Notes: a model not told the origin generated them from the sequence alone. Positions 9,854 to 51,506 are shown, counted from the stretch's first letter. The stretch: 64,000 nt of DNA from a bacterium (GCA_021787205.1 JAJYME010000007.1:74334-138333), one strand, 5' to 3'. A program made the numbers and translations.

Positions 9854-10066
9854 TTATTTTTCTTCGGCAACCTGGGCTTCCAAGTACTTCTGCCAATCGG
9901 CATTTTCCTGCTTATTGGTTTCAAGCTTGGCAAGTTCGTGCAAAATGGCATCTTTGCCAGATTCGGCATGCCTCTTTTGCAAATATCCGGTAGTAATTTC
10001 AATGCGGATCAGGTTTTCTTTTACTTCGTCAAGAAGTTCGTTTAAGATTTCCTTTCTGTTCTTCAT
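9854..10066 (-). CDS. small charged helical protein, hypothetical
   Basis: 70-aa ORF just upstream of ftsX; the sequence MKNRKEILNELLDEVKENLIRIEITTGYLQKRHAESG... has no recognisable motif and the call is tentative. Confidence 0.3.
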   Translation of the reverse strand: MKNRKEILNELLDEVKENLIRIEITTGYLQKRHAESGKDAILHELAKLETNKQENADWQKYLEAQVAEEK

Positions 10067-13456: not shown

Positions 13457-13888
13457 TTACGGTTTCGGACTCTCAGCGGCAGAAGGCTGCTTCGCCGTCG
13501 CGCTTTGACCATCGGGAACGATCGGGGCGACATTGATTATCTTATGAATGGACGGACGATATAATATCGCCTGCATATATTTTCCACCATAAGCCAAGAG
13601 CTTGTCGCCGTTCTCCGCTTTAGCAAAGAAGGCTTGATCCTTCAACTTTTCTATGTCTGAAATCGTAGCAACTGTTGGTGTCTCGTCGGCCGGGAGTTCC
13701 ATTATCTTCCCCACCTCCCTCACCAACCTAGCCGTATCTTCTTTGGCCTCGATATTTGGGTCCTTTTTGAGATTATTGTATTTTACATAGAAATAAGCGG
13801 TCGATCCGAAAGCGACAACTAAAACCGCAATAATTCCGAAAAATAAAACTTTGTTTTTCTTCCCGAGCTTATCCGAGATCGGAGTCAA
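13457..13888 (-). CDS. membrane-anchored hypothetical protein
   Basis: 143 aa with an N-terminal TM helix (VLFFGIIAVLVVAFGSTAYFYV). Confidence 0.5.
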   Translation of the reverse strand: MTPISDKLGKKNKVLFFGIIAVLVVAFGSTAYFYVKYNNLKKDPNIEAKEDTARLVREVGKIMELPADETPTVATISDIEKLKDQAFFAKAENGDKLLAYGGKYMQAILYRPSIHKIINVAPIVPDGQSATAKQPSAAESPKP

Positions 13889-18203: not shown

Positions 18204-19676
18204 TTATAATCTAACAAGAGTTAGCACAATTGGCAATTCTTCTACAGAATCAAGGCTCTCATAGACATATTCGCTTTTTCCGGTTTCCTTAAAAACATAT
18301 CCGCCAGAAACGGTAATCTTGATCGAGACTGGCATATCCGCCCCCTTTAGCCCTTTATAGAGGAACCTGTAAGACCTTCCTGAAAGCATATCCATTTTAT
18401 CTCGGTATTTAAAAGAAAAGATTCTTCCAATATTGTCGAACTCCTTAACGGAGAGACTATCCGCCAAGCCTTCCAAACCGGCTGTCCTCTTGTTCTCGTT
18501 ATTCGCATTAAGAAATTCAACCGTCTTCGGAACGATGACAAAAAGGTTTTCCAATCCTCTTAAAGAATCCGGCTCCACCCTCTTTAAGGTAACTTCCGTT
18601 TCCTCAGTCCCGTCGGAGAAAAGCTCGGTATTGATTTCCACCTTCGCCCTCAAGGGACTGCTTTCCGAGGCGGTGAAAACTGGCCTTAAGGAAAGATGAT
18701 TAGTCTCCGGAGAGACCTCCGATCTTTTTTCTTTGGGTAAAACGACTTGAAGATTCCCGGCATCGATAATCTTTCCAACATCCTCGGAGAAAGAGAGCAG
18801 TTTTTCCATTGAAAAAATTACTAACCTTTCCCTGGAAACAAACAGGATAGATTTTAAGAAATCCTTCTTCTTTATAACGGCCTCTCTGATGTTGTCGCTA
18901 TCGACAACTATCTTTTCATCCGGAAACTCAATAATGCCGAGATCGTTTACGATTCGGCGGATTCCAGAGAGGTTGATGGCGATAAACGCCAGCTCGTCCT
19001 CGGGGTAAGATTGTTTAATCTTGAAAGCGAGGCTATCAAGATCGGCATAACCGCTCCTTGTAAGGAGGCTGGCAACTTCGGGGGTCGGAGTTAGCTCATT
19101 ATCGAGATCCAGTTTTCCGGAAGAGACTGGATATATCCTTGACTCTAAAATCTTTCCTCCAAGCGGACTGATCTGATTTTCGTCGATGAGCAAGAAAACA
19201 ATCTTCCCATCAGCGGCCATAATTCTCTTAATGGTAGAAATCCTAGTCTCCATCTCAGTCAAATCCAACTGCTTGGAAAGATAGCTTTGGCTCCCGGAAA
19301 CGGAGGCGACGGACATAGATCTAGTCCTTAATTCCTTAAGATCCGCAACTGAGGAAAGGAAATTATCCGTTAGTCTAAGCAGATTGTCGCCGTCAGTCAG
19401 GGCGTACTTGAAAAAATCAGCCGAAAAGGCATCCCTAGCCTTCTCAAAATTGCGAATTTCCGGGACATCGGAATGAGCCGCCACTTTTTTAGTCGCAGTA
19501 AAGGGATTCCATTCAGAAAAGGATAAAATATCATCAAGATGCCCGTTTTTGGGGTCAGCTTCAACCACGCGAATATCCGGATGCTTTTTTATCAAGGCAA
19601 CGCCTCCAAGCCCCGCCCCGACCGCAATAAGGATAAGAAAAAAAGCCACAACCGAAGGTTTTCCCTTTAGTATCAT
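18204..19676 (-). CDS. membrane-anchored extracytoplasmic protein, hypothetical
   Basis: 490 aa with an N-terminal TM anchor (VVAFFLILIAVGAGLGGVAL). LCP-family similarity was considered, but the conserved Arg/Asp residues are not evident. Confidence 0.5.
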   Translation of the reverse strand: MILKGKPSVVAFFLILIAVGAGLGGVALIKKHPDIRVVEADPKNGHLDDILSFSEWNPFTATKKVAAHSDVPEIRNFEKARDAFSADFFKYALTDGDNLLRLTDNFLSSVADLKELRTRSMSVASVSGSQSYLSKQLDLTEMETRISTIKRIMAADGKIVFLLIDENQISPLGGKILESRIYPVSSGKLDLDNELTPTPEVASLLTRSGYADLDSLAFKIKQSYPEDELAFIAINLSGIRRIVNDLGIIEFPDEKIVVDSDNIREAVIKKKDFLKSILFVSRERLVIFSMEKLLSFSEDVGKIIDAGNLQVVLPKEKRSEVSPETNHLSLRPVFTASESSPLRAKVEINTELFSDGTEETEVTLKRVEPDSLRGLENLFVIVPKTVEFLNANNENKRTAGLEGLADSLSVKEFDNIGRIFSFKYRDKMDMLSGRSYRFLYKGLKGADMPVSIKITVSGGYVFKETGKSEYVYESLDSVEELPIVLTLVRL

Positions 19677-19712: not shown

Positions 19713-20264
19713 TCAAATATCCACCTCTCGTTTCCCCCTAAGAATCCTCCTGAACTTGATCAATTGGAGAATTATAAGCAAGATAACGACCGCCATGGCT
19801 GCTAAAATCAACCAAAAATAAAGATATAACCCGCCGATACCCCTCTTAACCATAAAGGTAGTCGAAATCTCCTCAGCAACCCCGCCTTGATCGACTGGCT
19901 CATAGGTCTGGATGAATATATTCAAAGTCTTCATGCCTCCCTTGGCGTCGCTTGGCACGGTCATGTAATCAATAAATGACGCCTGGGTTTCTACCGCTCT
20001 CAATACGTTTTCTCTGGCGATTATCGTATTCCCGTCGAACATCTGATACTCAATCCTTAAATCCCGTCTCCTTGTGTTTTCCGGATATTTTATCTCAACG
20101 TCAAAAAACACCTTATCGCCAGCCTTGACTTCAGTGTAGTTATCCGCGATTCTTGTTTCCAAGGATAGGGCGCTCGCCTTGGTGAACGTCGCAAAAAATA
20201 CGACTCCACATAAAGCGAGTATTAATGGCATTCTTTTATTTTTTATAAGACTTGTTTTCTTCAT
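19713..20264 (-). CDS. surface protein with signal peptide and C-terminal TM anchor, hypothetical; first gene of the surface cluster
   Basis: N-terminal signal (MPLILALCGVVFFATFTKASA) and a C-terminal hydrophobic helix plus basic tail (LYLYFWLILAAMAVVILLIILQLIKFRRILRGKR). Confidence 0.5.
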   Translation of the reverse strand: MKKTSLIKNKRMPLILALCGVVFFATFTKASALSLETRIADNYTEVKAGDKVFFDVEIKYPENTRRRDLRIEYQMFDGNTIIARENVLRAVETQASFIDYMTVPSDAKGGMKTLNIFIQTYEPVDQGGVAEEISTTFMVKRGIGGLYLYFWLILAAMAVVILLIILQLIKFRRILRGKREVDI

Positions 20265-20308
20265 CCGAACGATGGTCCGCTTTTAGACAAATGCAGTCTT
20301 GTTTGTTT

Positions 20309-21268
20309 TTATTTTTTTGATTTCAGGTTCTTGTTGACGGTAAAGATCAGAAAACCAACGAATAGTGACATAACTCCGATCAGGACGACGGGAACGAAGG
20401 GGGCGAGTTTCCGATTGCTAAAAGAATCGGTCCTCTGACCATCCTCCGACTTGATTGAAAAGGGCACAGAAAAAGTGTCTCTGATATCGTTGCCGTAAAC
20501 CGTATCAAGACGCAAAACGTATTTTCCTTCCGGGACACTGGGGGCGTATAAAAAATTCCTGTTATAAACCGCTTCGGTTTGAACAGATGTCGTATTTGTC
20601 TCCTTCCATATCTCCCCGCCTCTTGAGTCGATTACCGTAAACACCATATTCACCGGAGTAGAATCGCTTCCAAAGTTCTCGAAGGTGACATGAGCGGAAA
20701 GATCCTGAAGCTTTTTTATCTCGGCGGCGTCTATAAGAAGCCTTATATCAAAGACATGACTTAAGGATGGGTCCTTAACAGTCCCACCTACATCTCCCCG
20801 CCCGGTATATGGCTCGCTCCTGTAGATAGAAGGCCGATAATCGGTATAAATAATGCAGTTCTTGCAATCAAAGTTTATAACCCCGAACTTATCGCCCTCC
20901 AATCTTCCGGAAATCCTTCCCGATCTATCAATAAAGACGCCGTTAAAATCAATCCAGCCTAAATTATCATTCCAAGCTAACCCAGACATTCTGCCGTCCC
21001 TCGAAATCATAACGCCGCCGTCCTTCGGGGCCATATTGATCCACCCATAATTCGCATTCCAGACATACCCCGTCAGGCCGTTATCCGTAATTCTCACATT
21101 GCCATTCGGAGCTCCGAAGTTCAACCAACCCATCTCACTCCCCCAAGCATAGCCGTCATTTTTGTTCCCCAAAATGATATAGCCATCCGTCGTCGAGGCT
21201 CTGGCCCAATCAGAGGTGAATAAGATCATTGTCGAGAATAATATTGTTAAGAATATTTTTTTATTCAT
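20309..21268 (-). CDS. cell-surface repeat protein, paralog of 21328..22755: signal peptide, ~25-aa GW repeats (GYAWGS..GW.NF), conserved C-terminal domain, TM anchor
   Basis: Repeats GYAWGSEMGWLNFG / GYVWNANYGWINMA / GLAWNDNLGWIDFNG. The C-terminal FDIRLLIDAAE...TVQTEAVYNRNF...GKYVLRLDTVYGN block is shared with the neighbour, followed by a C-terminal TM. Confidence 0.6.
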   Translation of the reverse strand: MNKKIFLTILFSTMILFTSDWARASTTDGYIILGNKNDGYAWGSEMGWLNFGAPNGNVRITDNGLTGYVWNANYGWINMAPKDGGVMISRDGRMSGLAWNDNLGWIDFNGVFIDRSGRISGRLEGDKFGVINFDCKNCIIYTDYRPSIYRSEPYTGRGDVGGTVKDPSLSHVFDIRLLIDAAEIKKLQDLSAHVTFENFGSDSTPVNMVFTVIDSRGGEIWKETNTTSVQTEAVYNRNFLYAPSVPEGKYVLRLDTVYGNDIRDTFSVPFSIKSEDGQRTDSFSNRKLAPFVPVVLIGVMSLFVGFLIFTVNKNLKSKK

Positions 21269-21327
21269 AATTATTAATTAACCCAATCATTGGGCCTCGA
21301 CCTCATTGTCGGGAATCGCCTCTTTTT

Positions 21328-22755
21328 TTATATTTCCATTTTCTTTTTTTGTTCGTCTCTTTTCTTTTTAAGAAGGAAGAAGATAACGCCGACCGACACG
21401 ATAGCTGCAAAGCCGGCCAATAACCAATAAGGAGAAAAAACTTTCTTCCGACTTATTTCAAAATCAGCAAAGAATGTATCCTCGACATTTTGATTGTAGA
21501 GAGTCTTAAGTCTTAGTCTGTATTTTCCGGGCGCCAACTCGCCGGCATCGAAGAATCTTTTAATAAAGACTGCTTCGGTTTGAACCGTGGTCGAATCAGA
21601 ACCGCTCCAAACCTCTTCGCCTCCAGCGTTGATAATGGCAAATTCCATATTGATTGGAGTCGGAAGACGACCAAAACTGGTGAACATGACTCTCGCTACC
21701 AAGTCGCTAGCTTTGGAAACGGCGCCGCTATCCAACAAAAGCCTGATATCGAACAACTGGGCAGGCTGAGCCTCTTCTGGCGCCGGGGCGGGAGTCGGAG
21801 CGGGAGAAACCGCAGTCGGGACAATGCCGGGAGCGGGGGTGGGAGCAAGAGCAACGCCGGGAGCTGGAGTTGATGGAGCTGCCGGAGCAGGCTGGGCATA
21901 ATCAATCGAATTCGAAATCGTATCGGAACACGAGCCCCACTGTGTGCAGAACTTGGCATAGACAGTCTTCCTGCCAAAATCACCAGGCAATACCCAAGGC
22001 ACGGTAACGGAGGCGGATTCCCGATCGTATCTTATCTGGGAAGGGGTAGCCATATTGGCATCATTTGAAAGCCAGACCAGGTCAGTATTCCCATTGCCTA
22101 AGAGGGTCAGGGCCGTATTGACCGAAGCGGTCACTGGGGCGCCGTTATTTATCAAGACGTTAAAGCCGCCAGGCGGAGTGATGATCCCCTGTGGCGGAAC
22201 AACGCCTCCAGAGATTCCACCTCCTCCACCGCCGCCACCACCGCCACCACCGCCAACGGCTCGATAGCTTATCGGCCGAAAATCGGTCATGACATTACAA
22301 TTTGCGCAACTGAAATTAATCGTACCGACATTATCACCAATAGCCTGACCAATAAATCTGCCGGCAGAATTAATCAAAACACCGGAGAAATTAACCCAAC
22401 CGACGTTCGAACCCCAGGCAAATCCGGAAAGATTGCCGCTCGAGTCGACTCTAATACCGCCATTTGATGGCGATAAGCCGATCCAACCGGAATTGGAATT
22501 CCAGACATACCCGGTCAGGCCGCTATCTGTAATTCTCACGTTGCCGTTCGCGACCCTGAAATTAATCCAGCCAACCTTGCTACCCCAAGCATAACCGTCA
22601 TTGACAGTATTAGTCACGATCGTACCATTAGTTTCACTCGCCATTACGGTAAATGAAGTAAAGGTGAAAACAGCCAAGAGACCAACGCTGAAAATAAAGA
22701 GAAAACGTTTTTTAATTTTTAATCTTTCTTTCATCTGTCTTTTTTGAAATATCAC
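21328..22755 (-). CDS. cell-surface repeat protein paralog with a poly-Gly tract and a Pro/Ala-rich linker
   Basis: Same GW repeats and C-terminal domain as 20309..21268, plus G14 (encoded around 22215-22256) and an APAAPSTPAPGVALAPTPAPG... linker; C-terminal TM. Confidence 0.6.
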   Translation of the reverse strand: MIFQKRQMKERLKIKKRFLFIFSVGLLAVFTFTSFTVMASETNGTIVTNTVNDGYAWGSKVGWINFRVANGNVRITDSGLTGYVWNSNSGWIGLSPSNGGIRVDSSGNLSGFAWGSNVGWVNFSGVLINSAGRFIGQAIGDNVGTINFSCANCNVMTDFRPISYRAVGGGGGGGGGGGGGISGGVVPPQGIITPPGGFNVLINNGAPVTASVNTALTLLGNGNTDLVWLSNDANMATPSQIRYDRESASVTVPWVLPGDFGRKTVYAKFCTQWGSCSDTISNSIDYAQPAPAAPSTPAPGVALAPTPAPGIVPTAVSPAPTPAPAPEEAQPAQLFDIRLLLDSGAVSKASDLVARVMFTSFGRLPTPINMEFAIINAGGEEVWSGSDSTTVQTEAVFIKRFFDAGELAPGKYRLRLKTLYNQNVEDTFFADFEISRKKVFSPYWLLAGFAAIVSVGVIFFLLKKKRDEQKKKMEI

Positions 22756-22776
22756 AATTAAAGAACCCTCTCATTT

Positions 22777-25700
22777 TTAATTGCTGCCAGCCGCCTCACC
22801 TTGCGGCTGAGGAACGACAGGATCAATATTCTCGACCGGCGATGTTGATGGGATAACCTCGGGTAATGGGGTCGGCTCCGGAGCAATTTGAGATTCGCCT
22901 TCTGATAAGGTCCCCGATTCCGAAGGTTCAACCGGGCTGGTTTCTGACTCCGGCCCGGGGTTATCGGCTTCGCTAGGCTGCGGAAAATCCAGTTTTTCCT
23001 CCACTATTGGCGCATCAGATGAGGAAGATTCGACAACTCCTGATTCCGGCGGAGTGGCACTCTCCTCGGTTACACTAGGCGCTGAAGAAACAGGGACGAC
23101 GGGTGAAGCCGGCTGATCAAATTCAAAGAGTTTCTCTCTCTGGGCAAATGCATGCCAGAGAATCTTTACGTCGTTTTGAGGAATATATCCCTCACCGAAG
23201 GAGACGGAGAATCCGATCTTGGTGATGTCTTTTACGTACACAGGAGCATACTCTTTAAAGGAGGTAGCGGTGATGATTGGGAAAAAGTCGTAAGCACTCG
23301 AGAAGGAAACGCTGGCAGATGTTTCTCCGGCTCTCACAATTACCTCTCCAACAGAATCCTTATCAAGAGTGACATGTCCCCCGATAGAAATGGCGCCGGA
23401 AACGACCAAATCATTCAAGTCAGACTGAGAAACACCTGGGACGTTTAATGAAGCGATCTGGCTCTGCAAACTATTGATTTCAAGTTGCTGCTCATTGATA
23501 GCATTCACAAGAATCGGCGCCAGATGGGAATAAGCTATTCCCTTATATCCATCTTTATCCGTCGAGACGATTTCAGGGACGACCTGCTCCATCTTTTGAG
23601 CGCTAAACCCTATTTGAGGCGCAGAACCTCCGATAACGTTGTACCTTATCCCTTCCATTCTGGATACAAGACTCAGGGCATTATCGATCTTTGTGATGTT
23701 CTCCTTAAACCTCTCATCGGAAGAACTTTGCCAAGCTCCAAATTCATCGACATAACCATAGTTGCTCTTTTCCCCGACTTGGAACCTGTAAGACGATGTC
23801 TTCGTCCCGATTCCTATCTTTGAAGCTACCAAACCGTCGGTCGAAATGCTTGCGGAATAAATCCGAGCAATGGCCGATTCTGGCAAGATGGTCATATTGT
23901 TGTCCCGATAAAAAGTAAACTTATCGACTGCATCATAAGGTACCTCGGTCTTAACGCCGTTAAATAAATCTAAGCCGTCAACCAGTTGGTCATTAAAATT
24001 ATATTGAGTAATGGCATCGGGATTCGAGATGCTGCGAGTTTCTATTCTTGCAATCGGACTATCATCTTGCCAGGCCCGAATATAATCAAGATCGATTTGT
24101 CTGGAACCGGTAGTCTCAGTATGCATATTATACAAGGCCACGCCTAAATCCGCCGTCGGCCCGGCGCCAGAGACGGTTCCGCAATCGGTAAAATTAATAC
24201 CATCCGAGACGTCATAATCCATCAAGAATCTTACCGAAGTCGAGCTTTCGACTTGGATCCTTCCTAAGGCGAAAGCGGTGGTGCTGATTGTCCCAGAGCA
24301 GGTGACCGTACCAACGGTCGAGCCAGCGCTGCGGACAACTCCCACCCAGGAGGCATCATTGTTAGTCCAGAAGAAGATTCCGTTATTAGGCAGGGCATCA
24401 TTGGCTACCGGCGCCGCCGTCGCCCTATCCATCAGCCCCCAGACAATATCGTTGGTTGCATTGGTGACGTTAGTCCTGACTTTCATCTGGACGACCGGCA
24501 ATGAGGCTTTGGAGAAAATAGAGCTTAAGGCATTTCCGGCGGCACCAAAACCGATCAGAGCGCCAGTGTTGCTAGTCGTGCCGAAAGTCAGCCTGGCGAA
24601 GCCGCCGATACCGTCAAACGCCGTATAGGAAACGTTGTTGGAGGTGGTGTCAAAATACATCTGACCATTATCACCAATAACAGCGTTATCTGCCGTAATA
24701 GCGTTGGACGTATCGGCATTGAATTCCTCCGAAAAATAGGAGTTATTCCCAAAGAAACCGCCGGATTCAACTAACCCTCCGAAGACTTGGGTTCTGTTTT
24801 GAATCTTGAGGACGGAATAAGGAGTTACTCCATCAGAAGAGAAATCCAAGCCGTTGGGAATATAAACAGTGCTTCCATTCAGAGTAACAGTATCGGTTGA
24901 AGCGTTGCCAAGGATAGAATTTCCATTGACGGACAGGTCGTTATTGAATGTCTTATTACCGCCAAAAGTCTGGGTTGCGGCCGAAGTCAGGCCGGGATTG
25001 GTGATATCCGCCAGAGAGAGAGTGAGCACATTACTGGAAATTGAACCGCCGTTAGCGCTTGAACCGCTTGGAGTCGCAAGAGAAGTGATTATATTCGATC
25101 CGCCGGAAATCTTTGTGATGGCGATTCCTGCCGAACTATTGATGTCGGCGTCCATTATCGTCCCATTCAGAATCTTCGCAGAAGTAATCGCATCATTAGA
25201 GATAGTTAGAGCGCCAGTGTTGGAGAGGGTGGCGTCATTGGAAATTGAGACTGCGGCGGCGGTATTCGAGCCATTACCCACCCAGATCAAGCCGCTGTTT
25301 AAGGCAGTCCCTAATTTATTATTGAAAGTGCTCCAATCGGTGGAGGTGAGCGCTCCGCGAGCGGTCGCGGAAGCACTTGGAATATTGAAGGTATGTGTCG
25401 TTCCAGCGGAACTGATACCAAAATCCATTCCGGCAGTACCCGTGGCAAAAGTCTGGGTCGTCCCGGTCAGTCCGTTCAAAGACGTAATGCCCGAACCAGG
25501 CGAACCAAGAGCAGACCAACCAGTATTCACACTGTCGGTTGCCTTTACATACAAAACCCCATTAGCAGTATCGAGGGCAAGAGAACCCATGTCGGCAGAA
25601 ATATTTCCCTCCGGAGTGCCGGCCCTATTGTAAATACCAAAAGAATCAGTGCCATCACTGAAGTTAAGCCATTGTCCGGCAGAAGTCCTTGTAAACTTCG

Positions 25701-26034
25701 GCAAACCGGCGCCTGTGATGGCTAGCGTCAAATCGTTTCCACCAAGAGTGACTGAAGTTCCAGCATCGACAGTGAGAGCGTCGGCTAACTTTGTGAAATC
25801 AAGCGAATCATCAGTCAAGGCGATGGTGACTCCGGCATTCTCCGTGCCTGAGTTTGCAATGGTAAAGATGTTTTGTCCGCTGTCAGCAAGCGTAGCAACA
25901 TAATTGCCGGTGGTGTCAGCGCCAAGGGCGACAGCATTGCTGCCTATGGTTAAAGCCCCAGTATTACTTATCGTCGCATCACCCGACAAGGCGACACCGG
26001 TCGCGACATTAGATATGTTACCCACAAAAATCAA
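22777..26034 (-). CDS. large tail-fibre-like surface protein with beta-helix-type repeats and a phage-type intramolecular chaperone (peptidase S74-like) domain; probably the downstream part of a gene split by a frameshift from 26043..26837
   Basis: Recurrent G(A/L)LTSTDWSTFNNKLG / TGALTI repeats. SSDERFKENITKI...GIRYNV...GFSAQKMEQVVPEIV matches the SD.R.K.NI consensus of endosialidase/tail-spike C-terminal chaperone domains. About 300 further residues (Pro/Glu/Ser-rich) follow the domain. The track start TTG at 26034 is in frame with upstream coding sequence. Confidence 0.7.
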   Translation of the reverse strand: MIFVGNISNVATGVALSGDATISNTGALTIGSNAVALGADTTGNYVATLADSGQNIFTIANSGTENAGVTIALTDDSLDFTKLADALTVDAGTSVTLGGNDLTLAITGAGLPKFTRTSAGQWLNFSDGTDSFGIYNRAGTPEGNISADMGSLALDTANGVLYVKATDSVNTGWSALGSPGSGITSLNGLTGTTQTFATGTAGMDFGISSAGTTHTFNIPSASATARGALTSTDWSTFNNKLGTALNSGLIWVGNGSNTAAAVSISNDATLSNTGALTISNDAITSAKILNGTIMDADINSSAGIAITKISGGSNIITSLATPSGSSANGGSISSNVLTLSLADITNPGLTSAATQTFGGNKTFNNDLSVNGNSILGNASTDTVTLNGSTVYIPNGLDFSSDGVTPYSVLKIQNRTQVFGGLVESGGFFGNNSYFSEEFNADTSNAITADNAVIGDNGQMYFDTTSNNVSYTAFDGIGGFARLTFGTTSNTGALIGFGAAGNALSSIFSKASLPVVQMKVRTNVTNATNDIVWGLMDRATAAPVANDALPNNGIFFWTNNDASWVGVVRSAGSTVGTVTCSGTISTTAFALGRIQVESSTSVRFLMDYDVSDGINFTDCGTVSGAGPTADLGVALYNMHTETTGSRQIDLDYIRAWQDDSPIARIETRSISNPDAITQYNFNDQLVDGLDLFNGVKTEVPYDAVDKFTFYRDNNMTILPESAIARIYSASISTDGLVASKIGIGTKTSSYRFQVGEKSNYGYVDEFGAWQSSSDERFKENITKIDNALSLVSRMEGIRYNVIGGSAPQIGFSAQKMEQVVPEIVSTDKDGYKGIAYSHLAPILVNAINEQQLEINSLQSQIASLNVPGVSQSDLNDLVVSGAISIGGHVTLDKDSVGEVIVRAGETSASVSFSSAYDFFPIITATSFKEYAPVYVKDITKIGFSVSFGEGYIPQNDVKILWHAFAQREKLFEFDQPASPVVPVSSAPSVTEESATPPESGVVESSSSDAPIVEEKLDFPQPSEADNPGPESETSPVEPSESGTLSEGESQIAPEPTPLPEVIPSTSPVENIDPVVPQPQGEAAGSN

Positions 26035-26042
26035 TCCGCTGT

Positions 26043-26837
26043 TTAAGGCGGTCCCAATTTATTATTGAAGGTGCTCCAATCGGTTGAGGAGAGATAGCCG
26101 TTTGCCGTGCTGCTTGAAGCGCCGATCGAGAAGATCCCAGTCAGGGAGTCGTAAGAAAGCGGACTGGAAGCGGAAACGGCGCCACGGGCAAGAGTGTTCG
26201 AGAAGTACTTGTTGGTCGCTCCCTCCGTCAGGTTGTCGGTCGTCTTGCTGGAGAACCCGGTGTTGAACCTGGTCGTAGTGTAATAAAGATTGGTGTTCTC
26301 CGGAACAACCGAGGTGTCGAGAGTCTGCCAAGTCTTGTCGCCGCGATAATACTGGGCGGATGTTCCAGATGAGATCGCATTCTCCTTGCCGTTGAAGGTG
26401 CTCCAATCAGCCGAAGTCAACAATCCCCGATTAGCAGACGAGGCGCTGGGAAGGTTGAAAGTATGGACTCCTAGGGCTGAAGAAATCGTAAAATCAGTCC
26501 CAGTTGTCGAGGTCGCAAAAGTCTGGCTTCCATCCAAAAGACCGTTTATCGACAGAATTCCGCCGGAACCAGAGACTGCACCTCCATTCCAATATAAGAT
26601 CCCGCCAAGATTATAGAGCCTGTCGGTAGCCGGGGAGGGCGGGGTGGAAAGGCTAGCGAGATTCAAGTTGGAAAATATGTTTGCCACCACATTGCAATTA
26701 GAGTCTGTCGGTTGACAGCCCGGATCAGAAGTCTCTCCAGGAATGAAAGTAGCGTAAACGGGCTTTGATAAAATGGAGAATAAAGCGATTAAGGTGAGCG
26801 AAAGAAAAATATATTTTTTAATCAGTAGTTGTCTCAT
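26043..26837 (-). CDS. signal-peptide-bearing N-terminal fragment of the tail-fibre-like protein (shares the ..DWSTFN.K repeat motif with the large ORF)
   Basis: Signal peptide MRQLLIKKYIFLSLTLIALFSILSKPVYA. It ends ...YLSSTDWSTFNNKLGPP* where the intact internal repeat in the large ORF reads ...STDWSTFNNKLGTALNSGLIWVGN. A single missing A (AAATTGGGACCGCC versus AAATTAGGGACTGCC) shifts the frame. Confidence 0.6.
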   Translation of the reverse strand: MRQLLIKKYIFLSLTLIALFSILSKPVYATFIPGETSDPGCQPTDSNCNVVANIFSNLNLASLSTPPSPATDRLYNLGGILYWNGGAVSGSGGILSINGLLDGSQTFATSTTGTDFTISSALGVHTFNLPSASSANRGLLTSADWSTFNGKENAISSGTSAQYYRGDKTWQTLDTSVVPENTNLYYTTTRFNTGFSSKTTDNLTEGATNKYFSNTLARGAVSASSPLSYDSLTGIFSIGASSSTANGYLSSTDWSTFNNKLGPP

Positions 26838-26908: not shown

Positions 26909-26918
26909 TATTATAACA
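26909..26918 (-). promoter_or_regulatory. extended -10 (TGTTATAAT) candidate promoter for the surface-protein operon
   Basis: Minus strand TTGTTATAATAATC about 80 nt upstream of the start at 26837; no clear -35. Confidence 0.35.
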
Positions 26919-26950
26919 AAATAAGCTCGCTTGGGCAAAGACTTTTGTGG

Positions 26951-44897: not shown

Positions 44898-46640
44898 TTA
44901 TTTAACGATAATATTTATTCTCGACTGGTCCTTAGGGACAAACCTGATAAAGAACGGCCAGAGCTCGCTTTTCACGTTCTCAGCGCCAGCAATCGAGGCA
45001 ATTGAGGCCCGAAAGGAGTTGTAATTCTCCCCGGCAATCCTCTGCCTGAAGTCATTAGCGTTGAACTCCCTGGTCCAAGAGCCCGAGACAACGACCGGGA
45101 TAGTCGCCTTATTGGCTGCCCAATCAACGGTCGGGGCGCTATAGGTGACTTTGACAGATTTGGGAGTCAGAGAAACTCCTTCCTTGTCGATGAAGGCATT
45201 GCTAGCCAGGGAAACGATGTCGCTTTCTCTGACCGCTAAGACTTTGGTCTCAATCGAGATCCCGTAGCTGAATTCGCCTTTGGCATCAGGATCAGCAGTG
45301 ACTCCCTCGCGAGAGACGACTGTTGTCTTACCTTCAGGAACAGCGGTGAAGCCGCTCGGCATATTCATTGCCACGTCTGAGCTTAGGGCTTCCTCGACAT
45401 TCTTATGGGACTCCTCTTTCGCTTTTTGAAGGTCAGCATCAGTAGCCACCTTCATAACACCCGAGAAGCCGCCAGAAACACCATCCTTGAAGACACCGTA
45501 GAAACCGTTATATTTGGCAGTTCCTTGGAATCCGGGGATTTTAAGCTTCTCTTCAGAAGGACCGAAATTATAAGATTCGCCAACAGCATCCGCCTCAGCC
45601 GTCGCTATAATCGATGAAGGATTGATTTGCCCTTCGGAGATCTTGGCTCCGGGGACAGTAATAGCGGAGGTTAGACGGTAAACCTTGCCGTCTGAGGTAG
45701 TGAACCTGGTGTTCTTAACTAAGAGTTGAGGGTCGGAACTGTAGGCGTTCCAAATAGTAATCTTGCCGCTAGATTTCTTATGGACTTCTTTTTCCCCGGT
45801 AGCAATAAACTTAAAGACACCGGATTTTGAGGTCTTGAATATTTGGATTGGAACTGAGGAATCGCCAATGCTGGAAATATTGGTAGCGCCCGAGACGTTT
45901 GCAGTCCACTCGTATGGCATTTCCTTAAGAGTCACTTCCACATTCGCTTTTGGCAGAACAAAGAAACTCAAGTAAGCGCCACCGGCCAGGATCAGAAAAA
46001 TTCCCAGAGTGATAGCTTTCCTAACGAGGGAAAATTTTTTTATCTCTCCAGTTTCTTCGTCCGTCTCGTAGGCTATCTCGCTGTAAGAGACGGCATTAGG
46101 CTCTGCCTGGTCGTCTTCTGGCTCAGCGCGCTTGGCTTCGCCGTTTTGGCTGCGATCGCCGAAGCCGTTCTTAAAAAAACTGTAATCGGAGATCTTGCGG
46201 CTGGCCAAGTATTCCCTTTCCGCCTCGACTGCTTCCTCCTTTTTCTCTTCAGCTTCAACCCCATTGGTGACATTCGTTTCCTCAATGCTTCGGCCATCGT
46301 GAAGCTTGTCTCCCCTCATGACATACATGTTCATTCCTCCGGATTTTTTGGAGGGCACGATGTCGGCGAACTTATTATTCTTTCTTCGGGAAAAAACCGC
46401 ATCGGTCACATCAAGCCCGGCAAAAGAAGCGGCGTCCAAGACGTCCTGGCTGACCGACTCTATGGTCACATTCTTTTTAAGAGCGGATGATTCTCTTTTT
46501 ATAAGCTTGAAACTTTTAGGATCATTCAAGAGGGCCGAATCCTTAGGGATGTAGATTATGACCTCGGTTTCGTGGGTAGACAAGAGCCTATCGATTACGC
46601 TCGGAGCAAGATCTGTTTTTTGAATGTATATTTTTTTCAT
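44898..46640 (-). CDS. hypothetical bitopic membrane protein with a large extracytoplasmic C-terminal region
   Basis: 580 aa; ~200-aa acidic cytoplasmic N-terminus, one TM (ITLGIFLILAGGAYLSFFVL), then ~350 aa Ser/Thr/Gly-rich beta-type sequence. Confidence 0.55.
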   Translation of the reverse strand: MKKIYIQKTDLAPSVIDRLLSTHETEVIIYIPKDSALLNDPKSFKLIKRESSALKKNVTIESVSQDVLDAASFAGLDVTDAVFSRRKNNKFADIVPSKKSGGMNMYVMRGDKLHDGRSIEETNVTNGVEAEEKKEEAVEAEREYLASRKISDYSFFKNGFGDRSQNGEAKRAEPEDDQAEPNAVSYSEIAYETDEETGEIKKFSLVRKAITLGIFLILAGGAYLSFFVLPKANVEVTLKEMPYEWTANVSGATNISSIGDSSVPIQIFKTSKSGVFKFIATGEKEVHKKSSGKITIWNAYSSDPQLLVKNTRFTTSDGKVYRLTSAITVPGAKISEGQINPSSIIATAEADAVGESYNFGPSEEKLKIPGFQGTAKYNGFYGVFKDGVSGGFSGVMKVATDADLQKAKEESHKNVEEALSSDVAMNMPSGFTAVPEGKTTVVSREGVTADPDAKGEFSYGISIETKVLAVRESDIVSLASNAFIDKEGVSLTPKSVKVTYSAPTVDWAANKATIPVVVSGSWTREFNANDFRQRIAGENYNSFRASIASIAGAENVKSELWPFFIRFVPKDQSRINIIVK

Positions 46641-46734
46641 GAAGATAAAAGGTGTTCTTAATTCCCAAATCTTTTGAAAGATTGTCGGGAATCCAAAGTA
46701 TTGCCAGTTTCCCGGCTGTGCGGGGATAGAATTG

Positions 46735-47706
46735 TTAATGATTGCTTGTAAGCCATTTCATCCTTCTCTTGGCAATGCGATTGAAGCAGTCGTCAATGGA
46801 AGACTTGCCGTACTCGTAATGGACTATCTCCTTGTCGGAGACAAAGGGCAGAAACTCGATCTTAAGAGGAAGGGTCCTGGGATAGGATATGGCGTCAGTT
46901 TCAAGATCGGTCAAATCCTCGCACATAACATAGACTAATGGCTTCTTTATTTTAACATTTAATGAAGTTGCCGTCATCTCTTTGAAGAAGTCCTCAAAAA
47001 GACCGGAGAGGCTCGGGCGGAAGAATTTTTTCAAATCCTGAGACATCTCCTCATTGGCATAATTAGAGACAATCCTTTTAGCCGTATCAGCTCCGACCTG
47101 CATAAAGGAGGCAACTCCCTCGAATACCCTGTCTGAGCCCCAGCCGATCTCCCCTAAGGGATATAAGCCATCCTTGTCATCGGCGTGATAGAGATAGGTC
47201 TTTTCCTTCGTGACATTGGCGAAGATGAATTCCTTGTTCTTAGAATCCCTCTTCATCGCCCAGGCGCAAGCAGAATTATTCTCAAGGGTAAACGAAACTT
47301 CCCCCTTCCTGGGAGTATGATTCTCGATATCCTCGGACAAATCCCTGGTGACCATTGTTTCCACAAGCCCCACTTCAATAGTTCTCGACTTGAAGCCGAT
47401 CGGGTTTTGGACCGCGGCCCCGTCAAGCTTGATGTATAAAACGCGGACATCGGTCAGGACGACATCAAGCTCTGAGATGTTGTGTTTGGCGGCGAATTTT
47501 TTTCTTTCATCGTCAAACATCTTCCAGATAGCGCTGGTAATGGCGCTTTCGATTTCCGCTTCGGTTATTTCTTCGTTTTGCTTGTCACGCGATGAGACGC
47601 GGGATGAATAAACAGCAGTCCCGTAAACGGGGTCAATGGATAATGCGTATTTTTTTTCCTCTTCAATCGGAATATATCGGAAAGACATATAAACATTATA
47701 GAACAA
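46735..47706 (-). CDS. hypothetical protein
   Basis: 323 aa. The N-terminal YALSIDPVYGTAVYSS loosely resembles an actin-like ATPase phosphate-1 loop, but not convincingly. Confidence 0.5.
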   Translation of the reverse strand: MFYNVYMSFRYIPIEEEKKYALSIDPVYGTAVYSSRVSSRDKQNEEITEAEIESAITSAIWKMFDDERKKFAAKHNISELDVVLTDVRVLYIKLDGAAVQNPIGFKSRTIEVGLVETMVTRDLSEDIENHTPRKGEVSFTLENNSACAWAMKRDSKNKEFIFANVTKEKTYLYHADDKDGLYPLGEIGWGSDRVFEGVASFMQVGADTAKRIVSNYANEEMSQDLKKFFRPSLSGLFEDFFKEMTATSLNVKIKKPLVYVMCEDLTDLETDAISYPRTLPLKIEFLPFVSDKEIVHYEYGKSSIDDCFNRIAKRRMKWLTSNH

Positions 47707-47713
47707 AGAAAAA

Positions 47714-47737
47714 ACACCGCAAAATCTTGCGGTGTTT
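47714..47737. terminator. bidirectional hairpin terminator
   Basis: ACACCGCAA-AATC-TTGCGGTGT stem between an A-run and a T-run. Confidence 0.55.
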
Positions 47738-47749
47738 TTTTATAAAAAA

Positions 47750-47866
47750 AATTACGTCTTCTCGCTTTCCTCGAACCTCCAGCGGGTTCTCAGGCATATT
47801 GCGATTTGCGACATTTCATGTCGACCAAGCCAAATCGCAACATATGCCGCTCTGAAGACGTAAATT
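47750..47866. repeat. 117-nt nested palindrome with 12-bp terminal inverted repeats between the alaS stop and its terminator
   Basis: Outer AATTACGTCTTC / GAAGACGTAAATT. Inner GGCATATTGCGATTTG / CAAATCGCAACATATGCC. Central CGACA-TTTCA-TGTCG, plus a GAACC..GGTTC hairpin in the left arm. Confidence 0.5.
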
Positions 47867-47871
47867 ATCTT

Positions 47872-49737
47872 TTATTTCTCCAAAACGGCTTTGATGCGCC
47901 TGATCCCGGATGAGGAGGCCTCCTCTTTAACAATCTTAAAGCGACCCAGCTCAGAAGTGTTCGATACGTGAGGGCCGGAACAGATTTCGTAAGAAGCGAC
48001 GGTGTCACCTTCTCCCATCTTATAAACCTTCACCTTCTCTCCATAACGAGATTCGAAAACACCCATCGCCCCCTTTTCTTTGGCTTCAGGGACGGTCATC
48101 TCTTCGAAAGAAACAGGCAGTGACTCCGCAATCCAACCATTCACCATGTCCTCAACCTGTTTCAATTGCTCCGAAGTTAACTTCTCCGGGTTATTGAAAT
48201 CAAGTCTGGCCCTCTCAGGCGTGATATTGGAGCCTTTCTGAGTCACGTGGTCTCCGAGAACTTTCCTTAAAGCGGCCAACATAAGATGAGTGGCGGTATG
48301 AAGCCTAGTAGTCTCCTCCGAGACATCGCCTAAACCGCTCTTAAACATTCCGGCGGACAGGGAGCGCGAAAGATCCTGGTGCTTCTTGTACTCTTCGTCG
48401 AATTCGGCGCGAATAAAAGAGATTCCTTTTTCAATAACCAGCTCCTCAGTCATCTCGACGGGGAAACCGTAGCTCTGATAAAGGTTGAAGGCATCGACTC
48501 CGGACAACTTACCATCAGCGGAGAACTCCTCAAATTTTTGCAGCCCCTTCTCCAAAGAGATAGCAAACTTCTCCTCTTCCTTTTTAAGCTCGGAGGAAAC
48601 GAATTCCCTATTTCGAACAAGCTCCGGATAAACATCGCCGTAAATGTCGATAACTATCTCAGCCAGCTCATTCAACCAGATCCCCTCGATACCAAGATTC
48701 CTGCCGAACCTGGCGGCGCGACGGATGAGACGGCGGACAAAATAATTCTGCCCGATGTTGCCGGGGGCAACACCCTTATCATCGCCCACGATAAAAGTCG
48801 CCGCCTTGATATGATCAGAGATAATCTCAAACTCCTTTGGATGTTGATAATAAGTCTTATGAGAAAGCTCTCCGATCTTCCTTATCAACGGTTGGAAGAG
48901 ATCTGACTCAAAAATATTATTGTAGTCGTTGGCCGCCAAGATGATCCTTTCCAAGCCGCCGCCAAAATCAACATTCTTGTTTTTCATCTCTTTCCAGCCA
49001 TCTTCGGTTTTCACATATTGCATAAAAACGGAGTTGCCGATTTCCAAGAATCTGCCGCAATCACAATTCAAATGGCAATGCTCGCCGAATTTTTTATCGT
49101 GGGAACGCCCGGTGTCATAAAAAGTCTCCGAATCCGGACCTCCAGGCTCTCCGGTCTTGTCAGATCCCCTGTCCCACCAATTCTTGTCCCTGTAGGCCAT
49201 GATGCGAACCTTGTCAAAATCGACGGGAACGCCAGGACCGAAATCACCCTTACCGGTCGTATCCGGTCCGACTCCGGCGGCGATGCCATATTGGCCGAAT
49301 ATTTCCTGAAGGATTCTGATCGATTCCTCATCCTTAGGGATACCTTTCTCCTCATCACCGACATAAACCGTCTGATAAAGACGTTTGGGGTCGATTTCCA
49401 ACTCCTCAATCAAAAACTGATACCACCACTTCAATTGCTCATTTTTGAAATAATCGCCCAATGACCAGTTGCCAAGCATCTCAAAAAAGGTGTTATGCCT
49501 GTGATCGCCGACTTCCTCAATGTCTCCGGAACGGAAACATTTCTGCGAATCGACGAGACGGTTTCCTTCAGGGTGGGATTCGCCCAAAAGATAGGGAACC
49601 AAGGGAAACATGCCGCTGTTGGTGAACAGAAGCGTTGAGTCCCCTTCCGGGATAAGCGAAGCGGAAGCGATTACTTTATGGTTTCTCTTTGCAAAAAAAT
49701 CGAGATAACGTTGACGAATTTCCTTTGAGCTTAACAT
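47872..49737 (-). CDS. alaS: alanine--tRNA ligase, short form lacking the C-Ala domain
   Basis: FTNSGM class II motif, editing-domain HxxxH (HTATHLM) and CSGPHV motif; 621 aa against ~870 in E. coli. Confidence 0.9.
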   Translation of the reverse strand: MLSSKEIRQRYLDFFAKRNHKVIASASLIPEGDSTLLFTNSGMFPLVPYLLGESHPEGNRLVDSQKCFRSGDIEEVGDHRHNTFFEMLGNWSLGDYFKNEQLKWWYQFLIEELEIDPKRLYQTVYVGDEEKGIPKDEESIRILQEIFGQYGIAAGVGPDTTGKGDFGPGVPVDFDKVRIMAYRDKNWWDRGSDKTGEPGGPDSETFYDTGRSHDKKFGEHCHLNCDCGRFLEIGNSVFMQYVKTEDGWKEMKNKNVDFGGGLERIILAANDYNNIFESDLFQPLIRKIGELSHKTYYQHPKEFEIISDHIKAATFIVGDDKGVAPGNIGQNYFVRRLIRRAARFGRNLGIEGIWLNELAEIVIDIYGDVYPELVRNREFVSSELKKEEEKFAISLEKGLQKFEEFSADGKLSGVDAFNLYQSYGFPVEMTEELVIEKGISFIRAEFDEEYKKHQDLSRSLSAGMFKSGLGDVSEETTRLHTATHLMLAALRKVLGDHVTQKGSNITPERARLDFNNPEKLTSEQLKQVEDMVNGWIAESLPVSFEEMTVPEAKEKGAMGVFESRYGEKVKVYKMGEGDTVASYEICSGPHVSNTSELGRFKIVKEEASSSGIRRIKAVLEK

Positions 49738-49808
49738 TGGTTTTAACTGAGATTATACGCAAAAAGCCGGGATTTGTCATCCCGACTTCGAATCTTATCA
49801 ATTTGGTC

Positions 49809-51506
49809 TTAATTGCGGACAACCCCATCACCGGATCTCACCGTCGGATCGTCTTTAAGCTCGGTGCTGATTTCGCCGAAGTAATTGTTGTACTGCCTCA
49901 GGGTATAAGTATCGTCAGCGGTGATATCCGACTCCGTAATAACGGAACCGTATCCGCCCATATCGGCCGGACTCGGCAGATAGGAAAGCTGAATGACGGC
50001 TTGAGGATCGTCCTTAATCACTCCAGCGCCGGCAGGCAATTTCCCGATGGTCCAGATGAGATATCCATCAGACTCAGAGATCGTGCCAATATTCGTCCTA
50101 TTCTGACCGGTAGCTCTGACCCCTGGAGAGAGCTTTGATCTGACGACGACATTTTCCATGTCGGCGCCGACAGTCGCCAGGTTCATTCTTAAGACATACT
50201 CAGTCGCTTGCCCCACCCTTGGGGGAAACGGGCCGGAATTAAGGATGCCGGAAGCGGCATCGCGGTAAAACAACTTTTGGGTAAGATTGGCTTCTCCGGC
50301 AACTTTATTCTCAAGGCTCAGGACGTTGATGACGGTCTGGCCGTTCATATCCCCCTCGACTGACGCCTTGATCTTCACCGAATAATTCTTATCACTATAG
50401 TTTCTCATCGCAAATGCCTCCTTGGCGTTAACGTAAAAGGAAATAACCGTCTTATCACCCGGTTTCAAAGAAGCCAGCCTGGGCAGAACACTTTGGTCCC
50501 AGGTTATCTTATTCCCCGAAACTCTCATCCCCTCTTTTGAGGAGATTGTCGTGACGTCGATCATCTTGGAATCAAGCTCGGCAGCCAGGACGACGTTTTT
50601 AATCTCATTGGAGCTGAGGTTGCTAAGACCGATGTCGTATTTAAGTTCCGCGCCGGAAACGACCGTAATCCCGCTCGGGCTGTCATTCAAGGAAATGCTC
50701 ATCCCTAAGCTGGACTTGTCGCCCTTGATGGAAAAATCTTTCTCCGCCAGGACGGTTTTCTGGCCATCGGTCCCGTTAACCTTAACAACCCGAATGACAA
50801 TCTTTTCCTCCTTGCCTTCTTCCAAGGTGGCTAATCCCGAGAAGGTCCTCTTCTTTTCCGAATTGACGGGAAGACTCAAGCTCTCGCCGGAATTGAAGTT
50901 GGTAGAGATGCTATCGGGGATATCAGCCTCCAAGACGACGTTCCATTCCCTATCCGATTTGTTTCTTAGGTCAACGCTCCAATCGAATCTATCCCCTCCC
51001 TTAACGGCTTCCGGCGCCGTAATCGAGATGTCGACAGGAGTGTCGACAAGGATTTCTTTGGTTGCCGTCAAACGCAGTTTCTGCCCCAAATTCTTGGGAG
51101 TATAAAGAGCAACCGCGTGTAAGACGCGATCGAGGTTCTTATCCTTAACGATGATTGAAAAATCCTCTTTTACCGTCTCTCCGACGTCCACCACGGACAT
51201 TTCCCTCAAGGCCCTCAGTTGGTCTTCGTTCGATTCAAAAACAACCCCAGTCGGCAAGACTAACTCAATCGATGAATTCTCCAAAGGAGTCTTTGAGTTA
51301 TTCTGAAGGGTGACGGAAATCACAGTCGGCACCCCGACGACGACGGACTTCGGCAAATCGAAATCAAGTTGGACCCCATCCCCTCTAAAAAATGAAATGA
51401 ATAAGAACAAACCGATGGCGGACAAGATAAGTCCTCCAACTAAAAGGATTCCCCACTGCGTTTTTCTCGGACGCTCCTTAAACTTCTTGATAGACAAGAC
51501 TGGCAT
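49809..51506 (-). CDS. N-terminally anchored cell-surface protein with repeated Ig-like (DUF11/CARDB-like) domains, hypothetical
   Basis: TM anchor WGILLVGGLILSAIGLFLFISFF followed by ~100-aa beta-rich repeats. The annotated start overlaps recO by 67 nt, so the true start may be downstream. Confidence 0.55.
   Translation of the reverse strand: MPVLSIKKFKERPRKTQWGILLVGGLILSAIGLFLFISFFRGDGVQLDFDLPKSVVVGVPTVISVTLQNNSKTPLENSSIELVLPTGVVFESNEDQLRALREMSVVDVGETVKEDFSIIVKDKNLDRVLHAVALYTPKNLGQKLRLTATKEILVDTPVDISITAPEAVKGGDRFDWSVDLRNKSDREWNVVLEADIPDSISTNFNSGESLSLPVNSEKKRTFSGLATLEEGKEEKIVIRVVKVNGTDGQKTVLAEKDFSIKGDKSSLGMSISLNDSPSGITVVSGAELKYDIGLSNLSSNEIKNVVLAAELDSKMIDVTTISSKEGMRVSGNKITWDQSVLPRLASLKPGDKTVISFYVNAKEAFAMRNYSDKNYSVKIKASVEGDMNGQTVINVLSLENKVAGEANLTQKLFYRDAASGILNSGPFPPRVGQATEYVLRMNLATVGADMENVVVRSKLSPGVRATGQNRTNIGTISESDGYLIWTIGKLPAGAGVIKDDPQAVIQLSYLPSPADMGGYGSVITESDITADDTYTLRQYNNYFGEISTELKDDPTVRSGDGVVRN

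Follow-up and report, generated by a model that had tools for sequence, protein, structure and literature searches.

Organization of the locus

A cluster of genes for predicted surface proteins, built around a long fibre protein with an intramolecular chaperone domain, lies on the minus strand of a 64,000-nucleotide stretch of bacterial DNA (GCA_021787205.1 JAJYME010000007.1:74334-138333; this whole stretch is called the window below). An earlier note on this DNA had described five consecutive genes there, and all five minus-strand open reading frames (ORFs) are present: 19713-20264 (183 amino acids, a.a.), 20309-21268 (319 a.a.), 21328-22755 (475 a.a.), 22777-26034 (1085 a.a.), and 26043-26837 (264 a.a.). 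However, the 1085- and 264-a.a. ORFs belong to one gene, and the cluster consists of four genes, one of them frameshifted, rather than five (Table 1). When all five ORFs were searched against Pfam profiles, Peptidase_S74, in the fibre, was the only family returned.

Table 1. Features of the fibre locus, with positions counted from the first letter of the window; a.a. numbers within the fibre are those of the merged protein unless stated otherwise.
Feature	Position	Strand	Description
Promoter-like site	26910..26938	-	Between secA and the fibre start; TTGCCC-17-TATAAT with TG upstream; sigma-70-like, consensus match only
Fibre gene	22777..26837	-	Single 1353-a.a. coding sequence after repair; split into ORF264 (26043-26837) and ORF1085 (22777-26034)
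Signal peptide of fibre	26751..26837	-	a.a. ~1-29; hydrophobic segment a.a. 4-32; likely cleavage VYA|T, predicted from sequence
Conserved N-terminal domain of fibre	26523..26750	-	a.a. ~30-105; xxPGETxxPxCxPTDxxC...; two conserved Cys
Frameshift site	26053..26055	-	GGG run; expected GGGG or equivalent Gly codon, then ACC
Peptidase_S74/intramolecular chaperone core	23566..23721	-	Catalytic Ser is ORF1085 a.a. 772, merged a.a. 1040 (codon 23719-23721); Lys at +5
Beta-sandwich domain after chaperone	23119..23433	-	a.a. ~1136-1240; pLDDT 85-94
Acidic low-complexity tail	22780..23124	-	115 a.a.; 19% Pro, 17% Ser, 16% Glu; net charge -22
GW-domain protein, long paralog	21328..22755	-	475 a.a.; signal peptide, GW domain (~22261-22635), Gly-rich run, middle domain, Pro/Ala linker, beta-sandwich, C-terminal transmembrane anchor
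GW-domain protein, short paralog	20309..21268	-	319 a.a.; signal peptide, GW domain (~20828-21196), beta-sandwich (~20444-20761), C-terminal transmembrane helix (a.a. 294-313)
183-a.a. protein	19713..20264	-	N-terminal signal peptide and C-terminal transmembrane anchor
490-a.a. protein	18204..19676	-	N-terminal membrane anchor

A single fibre gene split by a one-nucleotide deletion

ORF264 and ORF1085 are a single gene that has been disrupted by the deletion of one nucleotide. Addition of one G to the GGG run at the frameshift site joins the two frames (...STDWSTFNNKLG|TALNSGLIFVGN...) and yields a merged protein of 1353 a.a. Without it, ORF264 ends in ...STDWSTFNNKLGPP*, and the adjacent frame carries on as TALNSGLIFVGN.... 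An internal copy held by ORF1085, STDWSTFNNKLGTALNSGLIWVGN, matches the repaired junction; at the DNA level this intact copy (~25300-25315) reads "aaa tta ggg act gcc tta aac", as opposed to "aaa ttg gg- acc gcc tta aac" at the disrupted site. The closest relative, orthologue P0001 (60% identity), aligns continuously over the junction, and many relatives with the same signal peptide, N-terminal motif, and S74 domain are intact single ORFs (among them P0008, P0011, P0013, and P0015). The same deletion occurs in an independent Logan assembly (L088), and the 264-a.a. product is encoded on 5 contigs, which indicates that the deletion is real and not an assembly slip. The signal peptide resides on ORF264, while ORF1085 alone has no hydrophobic segment. 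The earlier description of all five proteins as exported or membrane-anchored is therefore correct for the ORF264 fragment and fails for ORF1085 taken by itself. The deletion cuts the signal peptide off from the fibre body, and the fibre is probably not displayed in the present genome, as either a recent pseudogene or an OFF variant.

Fibre genes are disrupted in other lineages as well. The orthologue in a diverged lineage, L001 (LepA 89% identical), carries an in-frame TAG (9932-9934) in place of a Gln codon (..AGTTS*YYRGDK..), and the fibre cluster members of 1120, 1010, and 907 a.a. all start past this position. Stop-codon reassignment was considered for this TAG and rejected, because 3 of 21 L001 genes and 7 of 52 window genes end in TAG. 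In L069, an unrelated metagenome-assembled genome (MAG), the fibre gene is frameshifted just past the N-terminal domain (~1225-1330). The three lesions are independent, all fall soon after the signal peptide and N-terminal domain, and downstream of each the reading frame continues uninterrupted over more than 1000 codons. Relative to L001, the proportion of nonsynonymous differences (pN) has reached 0.30-0.33 vs. a saturated synonymous proportion (pS) of ~0.78, values similar to those of neighboring genes; the saturation precludes a proper dN/dS, and the comparison suggests that the fibre has been under purifying selection since the two lineages separated.

It could be argued that the split does not inactivate the gene, either because ribosomes slip by -1 on G_GGA or because the deletion is an artefact, of a minority variant or of the consensus, and that the fibre is displayed after all. 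With tRNA-Gly shifted from GGA to GGG, the product would read precisely as the consensus ...KLG-TALNSG... (junction NNKLGTALNSGLIF), the ORF beyond the junction runs uninterrupted through 1085 codons and its protein is constrained, and the lesions of the three genomes lie at similar positions. On the other hand, the site is not a canonical X_XXY_YYZ slippery heptamer, the lesions elsewhere, an in-frame TAG and another frameshift, are of other kinds and at other sites and so provide no conserved recoding signal, and TAG is an ordinary stop in these genomes; an artefact is opposed by the recurrence of the deletion in the independent assembly. Active display by either route thus appears quite improbable. 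A programmed frameshift in particular is unlikely, with neither a canonical heptamer nor a conserved site. Because the sites and types of the lesions differ, programmed recoding is unlikely in general, and the lesions are most economically explained by recent inactivation or by ON/OFF variation.

Anatomy of the fibre protein

The merged protein opens with a signal peptide and a conserved N-terminal domain. The domain matches 16 of the 120 top fibre homologues, none of which bears a Bdellovibrio-type name, and comparison with the N-termini of homologues from Bdellovibrionales revealed no similarity. No relatives of it were found in 2.9 million viral contigs. It is followed by a shaft of ~110-a.a. 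"SxDWSTFNNK / SGDATISNTGALT" modules, for which giant Bdellovibrionales and Chitinophagales proteins have homologous shafts (40-42% identity to the Bdellovibrionales protein P0012). The central region (a.a. ~640-960) is lineage-specific, being common only to the fibre and its orthologue. Even at E ≤ 10, Pfam returned no match for the N-terminal region, the central region, or the domain behind S74, and no transmembrane (TM) segment follows the S74 domain. The orthologue in L001 (10001-13363) and the cluster members P0397-P0400 are variants of 1120, 1010, and 907 a.a. that differ by whole ~110-a.a. tandem repeat units, which could reflect true copy-number variation or the collapse of repeats during assembly. 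Contigs L088, L089, and L090 terminate within the fibre repeat region.

The chaperone domain assigned to the fibre by the earlier note, of a type predicted to cleave itself, is borne out by profile, residues, and fold. PF13884 (Peptidase_S74) matches residues 772-823 of ORF1085 with an E-value of 6.6e-11 and a score of 42.8 bits, above the cutoff of 22. Tail-fibre families of the PHROG collection match the same region with E-values down to 1.7e-22, every time at the extreme C-terminus of the phage profile, and among solved structures, sequence comparison matched only phage S16 gp37, at its chaperone-bearing C-terminus (6f45). The Ser/Lys dyad lies within SDERFK (merged a.a. 1040-1045), and both residues are nearly invariant in an alignment of 22 relatives. 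An AlphaFold2 (AF2) model of the chaperone has predicted local distance difference test (pLDDT) values of 89-96, and Foldseek returned the ICA domain of MyRF as its best match (7dc3; E = 3e-5, TMt 0.63), with an endosialidase (3gw6) and a phage T5 protein (4uw8) also listed.

The catalytic Ser is separated from the protein end by 314 residues, which the earlier note had characterized as ~300 residues of Pro/Glu/Ser-rich sequence and as unusual. Both descriptions have to be revised. The segment comprises ~95 a.a. of chaperone, a folded beta-sandwich domain of ~105 a.a., and an acidic tail of 115 a.a., and only the tail is of low complexity. In relatives that share the N-terminal motif, the stretch beyond the Ser is typically 257-391 residues long, vs. 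~127-177 in canonical proteins, and the extension is found in 14 relatives; it is thus a trait of the Patescibacteria family of fibres and not a quirk of the present gene. The beta-sandwich is kept in 13 of the 22 aligned relatives, with the motif ...GHVxLGKDTVGEAxI...PxIT.T...GF...FxWHAFAQKG. Its fold weakly matches H-type lectins in Foldseek searches (3wmp, E = 5e-3, TMt 0.56; 4q56 and 2ccv, E ~0.03-0.05), and it also weakly resembles the C-terminal domains of tailspikes and R-pyocin fibres. Pfam gave no H_lectin match for it at E ≤ 10. The tail of orthologue P0001 is acidic too, with a different sequence.

Some of these features would also suit a fibre that is mainly an enzyme, i.e., a tailspike-like depolymerase acting on a host or matrix polysaccharide, with the GW-domain proteins of the cluster as carbohydrate or cell-wall binders in the same pathway. 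Endosialidases and depolymerizing tailspikes typically end in S74 (PMC10769870), the fold of the post-chaperone domain is similar to those at the C-termini of tailspikes and depolymerases (7eea, 9k4a, and 2vbe), and the Trp-rich repeats of the GW proteins would be typical of glycan binders. However, searches of the central region at thresholds as loose as E ≤ 10 gave no glycosidase or lyase family, no catalytic domain of the beta-helix type was recognized, and the lineage specificity of the central region is what would be expected of a variable binding module. A chiefly enzymatic fibre therefore has rather little probability.

The GW-domain proteins

The 319- and 475-a.a. proteins are paralogs with a common C-terminal domain, as the earlier note had recognized: their N-terminal domains are 53% identical (E = 4e-52) and their C-terminal domains 42% (E = 1e-28). 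The N-terminal domain, called GW here, spans ~125 a.a. and contains four GYAWxxxxGWINF-like hairpin repeats followed by NFDCxNCxVxTDxRP, which includes two invariant Cys. The name only describes the GYAWxxxxGWINF motif. Neither the domain nor the two full proteins matched any Pfam, NCBIfam, or PHROG family, and the "GW-type repeats" of the earlier note accordingly have no demonstrated kinship to any described GW module. AF2 predicts an all-beta GW domain (pLDDT 90-98), with a beta-sandwich next to it (pLDDT 72-92) and a TM helix at the C-terminus. In Foldseek searches of PDB and BFVD, the GW fold had no convincing match, and only generic immunoglobulin (Ig)-like matches were returned, to the beta-sandwich.

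The family is large. An exhaustive profile search with the GW domain yielded 6,260 cluster representatives at E ≤ 1e-3, 2,926 at ≤ 1e-10, and 700 at ≤ 1e-30. The usual place of the domain is at residues ~25-145, right behind the signal peptide. In the genome collection, 171 GW stretches were confirmed, and the best 79 loci are nearly all from MAGs of Patescibacteria (candidate phyla radiation, CPR), including Magasanik-, Kaiser-, Nomura-, and Staskawiczbacteria, Paceibacterota, and Gracilibacteria. The family thus appears almost restricted to Patescibacteria, and no relatives of the domain were found in 2.9 million viral contigs. GW-domain and fibre genes also occur on contigs labelled as Proteobacteria, namely L068 (Bradyrhizobium manausense) and L014, L016, L023, and L077 ("Gammaproteobacteria" MAGs), which are probably contaminating or mis-binned Patescibacteria DNA. 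In some GW proteins a dockerin replaces the TM anchor, which fits surface display of these proteins. Since neither the GW domain nor the N-terminal domain of the fibre was found in viral contigs, the N-terminal end of the fibre and its partner gene appear to be cellular, and it is the chaperone end that is shared with phages.

Linkage of fibre and GW genes

The most informative feature of the locus, missed by the earlier note, is that fibre and GW genes are widely linked. Linkage was searched for among six-frame ORFs of the GW loci, with a hidden Markov model (HMM) of the fibre N-terminal domain and with phmmer searches using segments of the window proteins. A fibre-type ORF is present in 48 of 82 GW loci, and the N-terminal domain HMM, built from 17 relatives, likewise matches in 48 of the 82. 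Where at least 4 kb of upstream sequence is available (59 loci), a fibre-type ORF is directly adjacent in 41, and all 58 of 58 fibre-type ORFs are on the strand of the GW gene. Most commonly the fibre comes first and the GW protein last, with a small protein anchored at its N-terminus (such as the 171-a.a. protein of L001) between them. Reverse look-ups from two independently chosen fibre homologues, P0015 (Falkowbacteria) and P0013, found a small TM protein and a GW protein, in that order, as the two downstream genes in both cases.

GW proteins might instead be independent envelope proteins (wall-binding or S-layer-like) that neighbor the fibre only because secreted-protein genes share a neighborhood. 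No fibre gene was detected beside the GW gene in 18 of the 59 informative loci, and many GW proteins are short and stand-alone, with a fold that gives no functional clue. This explanation has difficulty with the immediate adjacency and the fixed order of fibre, small TM protein, and GW protein, which recur across distant classes of Patescibacteria and in both search directions; in addition, conserved Cys pairs are found in the most conserved parts of both partners, although this is only suggestive. Independent GW proteins are therefore considered unlikely. Taken together, these data point to a CPR-wide fibre-GW module that is new, together with a large unannotated domain family almost restricted to Patescibacteria.

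Variants of the arrangement were also noted. In the window, a 143-a.a. N-terminally anchored homologue of the small TM protein (E = 6e-20) is encoded at 13457-13888 on the minus strand, ~6 kb away beyond lepA and pyrG. A distant module (L003, 5292-13347) has a 1305-a.a. fibre with the same N-terminal motif, no S74 domain, and a weak F5/8 type C match, followed by a 248-a.a. small TM protein, a dockerin-ended GW protein, and two TM-anchored proteins of unknown family. The possibility that the proteins downstream of this dockerin-bearing GW protein are cohesins was considered and dropped, as they have no Pfam support. In L086, a gene for a DsbA/thioredoxin-like protein (2505-3263) lies close upstream of the Falkowbacteria fibre gene; the fibre N-terminal domain and the GW domain both carry conserved Cys pairs.

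Chromosomal context

The sequence of the window matches contig DAHWOP010000007.1 (497 kb) of GCA_027339325.1. The cluster is embedded among housekeeping genes. On the lower-coordinate (downstream) side are lepA, pyrG, a release factor gene, ftsE/ftsX, and a gene for an AddA-like helicase; on the higher-coordinate (upstream) side are secA, hpf, gatA, ligA, and the AlaRS gene, with topA and dprA farther out. The position between secA and lepA is kept in L001, which answers the call of the earlier note for a synteny check: the order there is secA, fibre, 171, 468, 326, three small membrane proteins, 182, and 495 a.a., then lepA. A third lineage (L089/L090) has fibre-467-315-183-494-lepA.

The locus could conceivably be a decaying prophage or tailocin remnant in which the fibre is a leftover phage tail fibre. 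Its chaperone region does match phage tail-fibre PHROGs and phage S16 gp37, and the gene is disrupted. However, the 64-kb window holds no phage structural, integrase, or lysis genes, in line with the earlier note, which had seen none nearby; the chromosomal position and gene order are kept in diverged lineages; the fibre has a Sec signal peptide; its N-terminal domain and the GW domain were not found in viral contigs; and GC content is even along the window (0.42-0.50). A prophage origin is ruled out by the housekeeping flanks together with the synteny in diverged lineages, and a phage remnant of any kind is scarcely credible.

Two further genes adjoin the GW genes. The 183-a.a. protein accompanies the module in the related lineages and at 4 distant loci. 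It was considered as a paralog of the C-terminal domain common to the GW proteins and rejected, as BLAST found no similarity. The gene for the 490-a.a. protein has a constant position between the 183-a.a. gene and lepA in the related lineages, with the lepA start 4 nt past its end. Its product matches no family and was not found in the distant loci, and is possibly a lineage-specific member of the cluster. No convincing terminator was recognized within the cluster.

Elsewhere in the window, the second tail-fibre-type protein reported by the earlier note is indeed encoded at 60845-62440 (minus strand). It has 531 a.a., with a signal peptide, "NVGIGT...L.V.G" repeats, a Cys-rich C-terminus, and PHROG tail-fibre matches (E = 9e-16). 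It has no S74 domain, Pfam match, or GW neighbor, and its gene is convergent with topA. The minus-strand region 44898-51506 may be a further surface-protein group: a 565-a.a. protein (49809-51506) has DUF11 and transglutaminase-C Ig-like matches, and two large ORFs without a Pfam match (44898-46640 and 46735-47706) flank the AlaRS gene.

Proposed mechanism

On balance, the locus is probably a chromosomal surface-fibre operon of Patescibacteria, a counterpart of the mosaic adhesive trimer (MAT) fibres of Bdellovibrio that is docked on GW-domain anchors. The fibre would be exported by Sec as a mosaic of ~1350 a.a. The S74 chaperone would then drive trimerization and subsequently cleave itself at Ser1040, as suggested by S74 biology and by work on the Bdellovibrio MAT fibres (PMC10769870). 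Unlike in phages, the cleaved C-terminal fragment would carry a lectin-like beta-sandwich and an acidic tail, for which the options are a released lectin, an aid to assembly, or non-covalent retention. The GW proteins, anchored in the membrane by their C-termini, would project the GW domain outward on the beta-sandwich and Pro-rich spacers, and would dock the conserved N-terminal domain of the fibre at the cell surface. They are proposed as docking partners because the fibre has no anchor of its own and the GW genes are adjacent and co-oriented. The variable distal and central part of the fibre may bind the surface of a partner or host. The earlier note had proposed a domesticated tail-fibre module used as an adhesin; the phage-like mosaic at a non-prophage locus agrees with the first part of this proposal, but the fibre is frameshifted and maybe not exported, and an adhesin function, like an episymbiotic lifestyle, is conjectural.

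Several points weigh against the docked-fibre interpretation. The small TM protein that commonly separates fibre and GW genes is absent between those of the window. The linkage counts come from detection with the HMM and phmmer searches of this analysis, without an explicit genome-wide background, and the binding of GW proteins to the fibre is deduced from gene adjacency. Such adjacency could also stem from co-regulation or from a common role in the envelope, and co-orientation of genes is frequent in Patescibacteria in any case. Autocleavage would remove the lectin-like domain along with the chaperone, which sits poorly with a simple picture of an adhesin at the fibre tip. The fibre is disrupted in the window, L001, and L069, and the system may be decaying in these genomes. 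Finally, the assignment to Patescibacteria was made from relatives and gene content and not from a marker-gene phylogeny.

A more far-reaching proposal can be offered tentatively, and is the more doubtful of the two: fibre, small TM protein, and GW protein might form an undescribed attachment apparatus found throughout the Patescibacteria. The GW proteins would then be a docking platform, the distal fibre parts would set host range, the trimer of lectin and acidic tail released by S74 would have a role of its own, and the lesions would reflect ON/OFF switching of a structure that is costly or targeted by phages.

Apart from type IV pili, little is known of how CPR bacteria recognize and hold their hosts (PMC11665869). 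The locus points to a concrete and widespread candidate for host attachment, in which Bdellovibrio-like fibres are coupled to the unannotated GW family, and the gene pair provides a search handle for host-range determinants in metagenomes. The unusual internal position of S74 is relevant to the reuse of such domains beyond phages. Hypotheses raised by the locus include complex formation of the GW domain with the N-terminal domain of the fibre, cleavage by S74, and glycan binding by the post-chaperone domain.

Comparison with known systems

The MAT fibres of Bdellovibrio bacteriovorus are cell-encoded, signal-peptide-bearing proteins with an S74 subgroup, e.g., Bd3182 (Caulton et al., 2024; PMC10769870). 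All MATs have in common a conserved, beta-rich N-terminal domain of ~130 a.a. Thirteen of 21 MAT fibres end in S74, and self-cleavage and surface location have been shown experimentally (PMC10769870). The family is a precedent for cell-encoded S74 fibres that serve as surface adhesins in a bacterium that attacks other bacteria; the supplement of the MAT study lists MAT-like proteins in other taxa, with no Patescibacteria among them (PMC10769870). A full-text literature search likewise found no paper tying S74 or intramolecular chaperones to CPR bacteria. The present fibre resembles MAT fibres in being cell-encoded and not prophage-encoded, and in having a signal peptide (here only after repair of the frameshift), a long repetitive shaft, an S74 domain with SDxxxK, and variable distal mosaic parts. 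It differs in its N-terminal domain, which appears to be of another type (xxPGETxxPxCxPTDxxC), in the internal position of S74, which is followed by the beta-sandwich and the acidic tail, and in its linkage to GW-domain anchor genes, which is not described for MATs. The envelopes differ as well, that of Patescibacteria being monoderm-like, whereas Bdellovibrio has a Gram-negative outer membrane.

Phage chaperone domains, such as those of K1F endosialidase (3GW6), T5 pb1 (4UW8), and S16 gp37 (6F45), share with the fibre the Pfam match, the Ser/Lys dyad, the predicted fold, and the place after the shaft. In phages, however, the domain ends the protein (PHROG matches reach the last residues), whereas 220 residues more are found here, together with a Sec signal peptide and no virion context. 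An internal S74-type domain is known from MyRF (ICA; 7DC3), which has functional sequence on either side of the cut. MyRF is a eukaryotic membrane-bound transcription factor; no TM segment follows the fibre domain, and the likeness is at the domain level only. For the post-chaperone domain, the best fold matches (TMt 0.5-0.56) are H-type lectins (Helix pomatia agglutinin, SLL-2, and discoidin II) and the knobs of tailspikes and R-pyocins. The scores are weak (E 5e-3 to 5e-2), and the fibre domain differs in sitting downstream of a predicted cleavage site.

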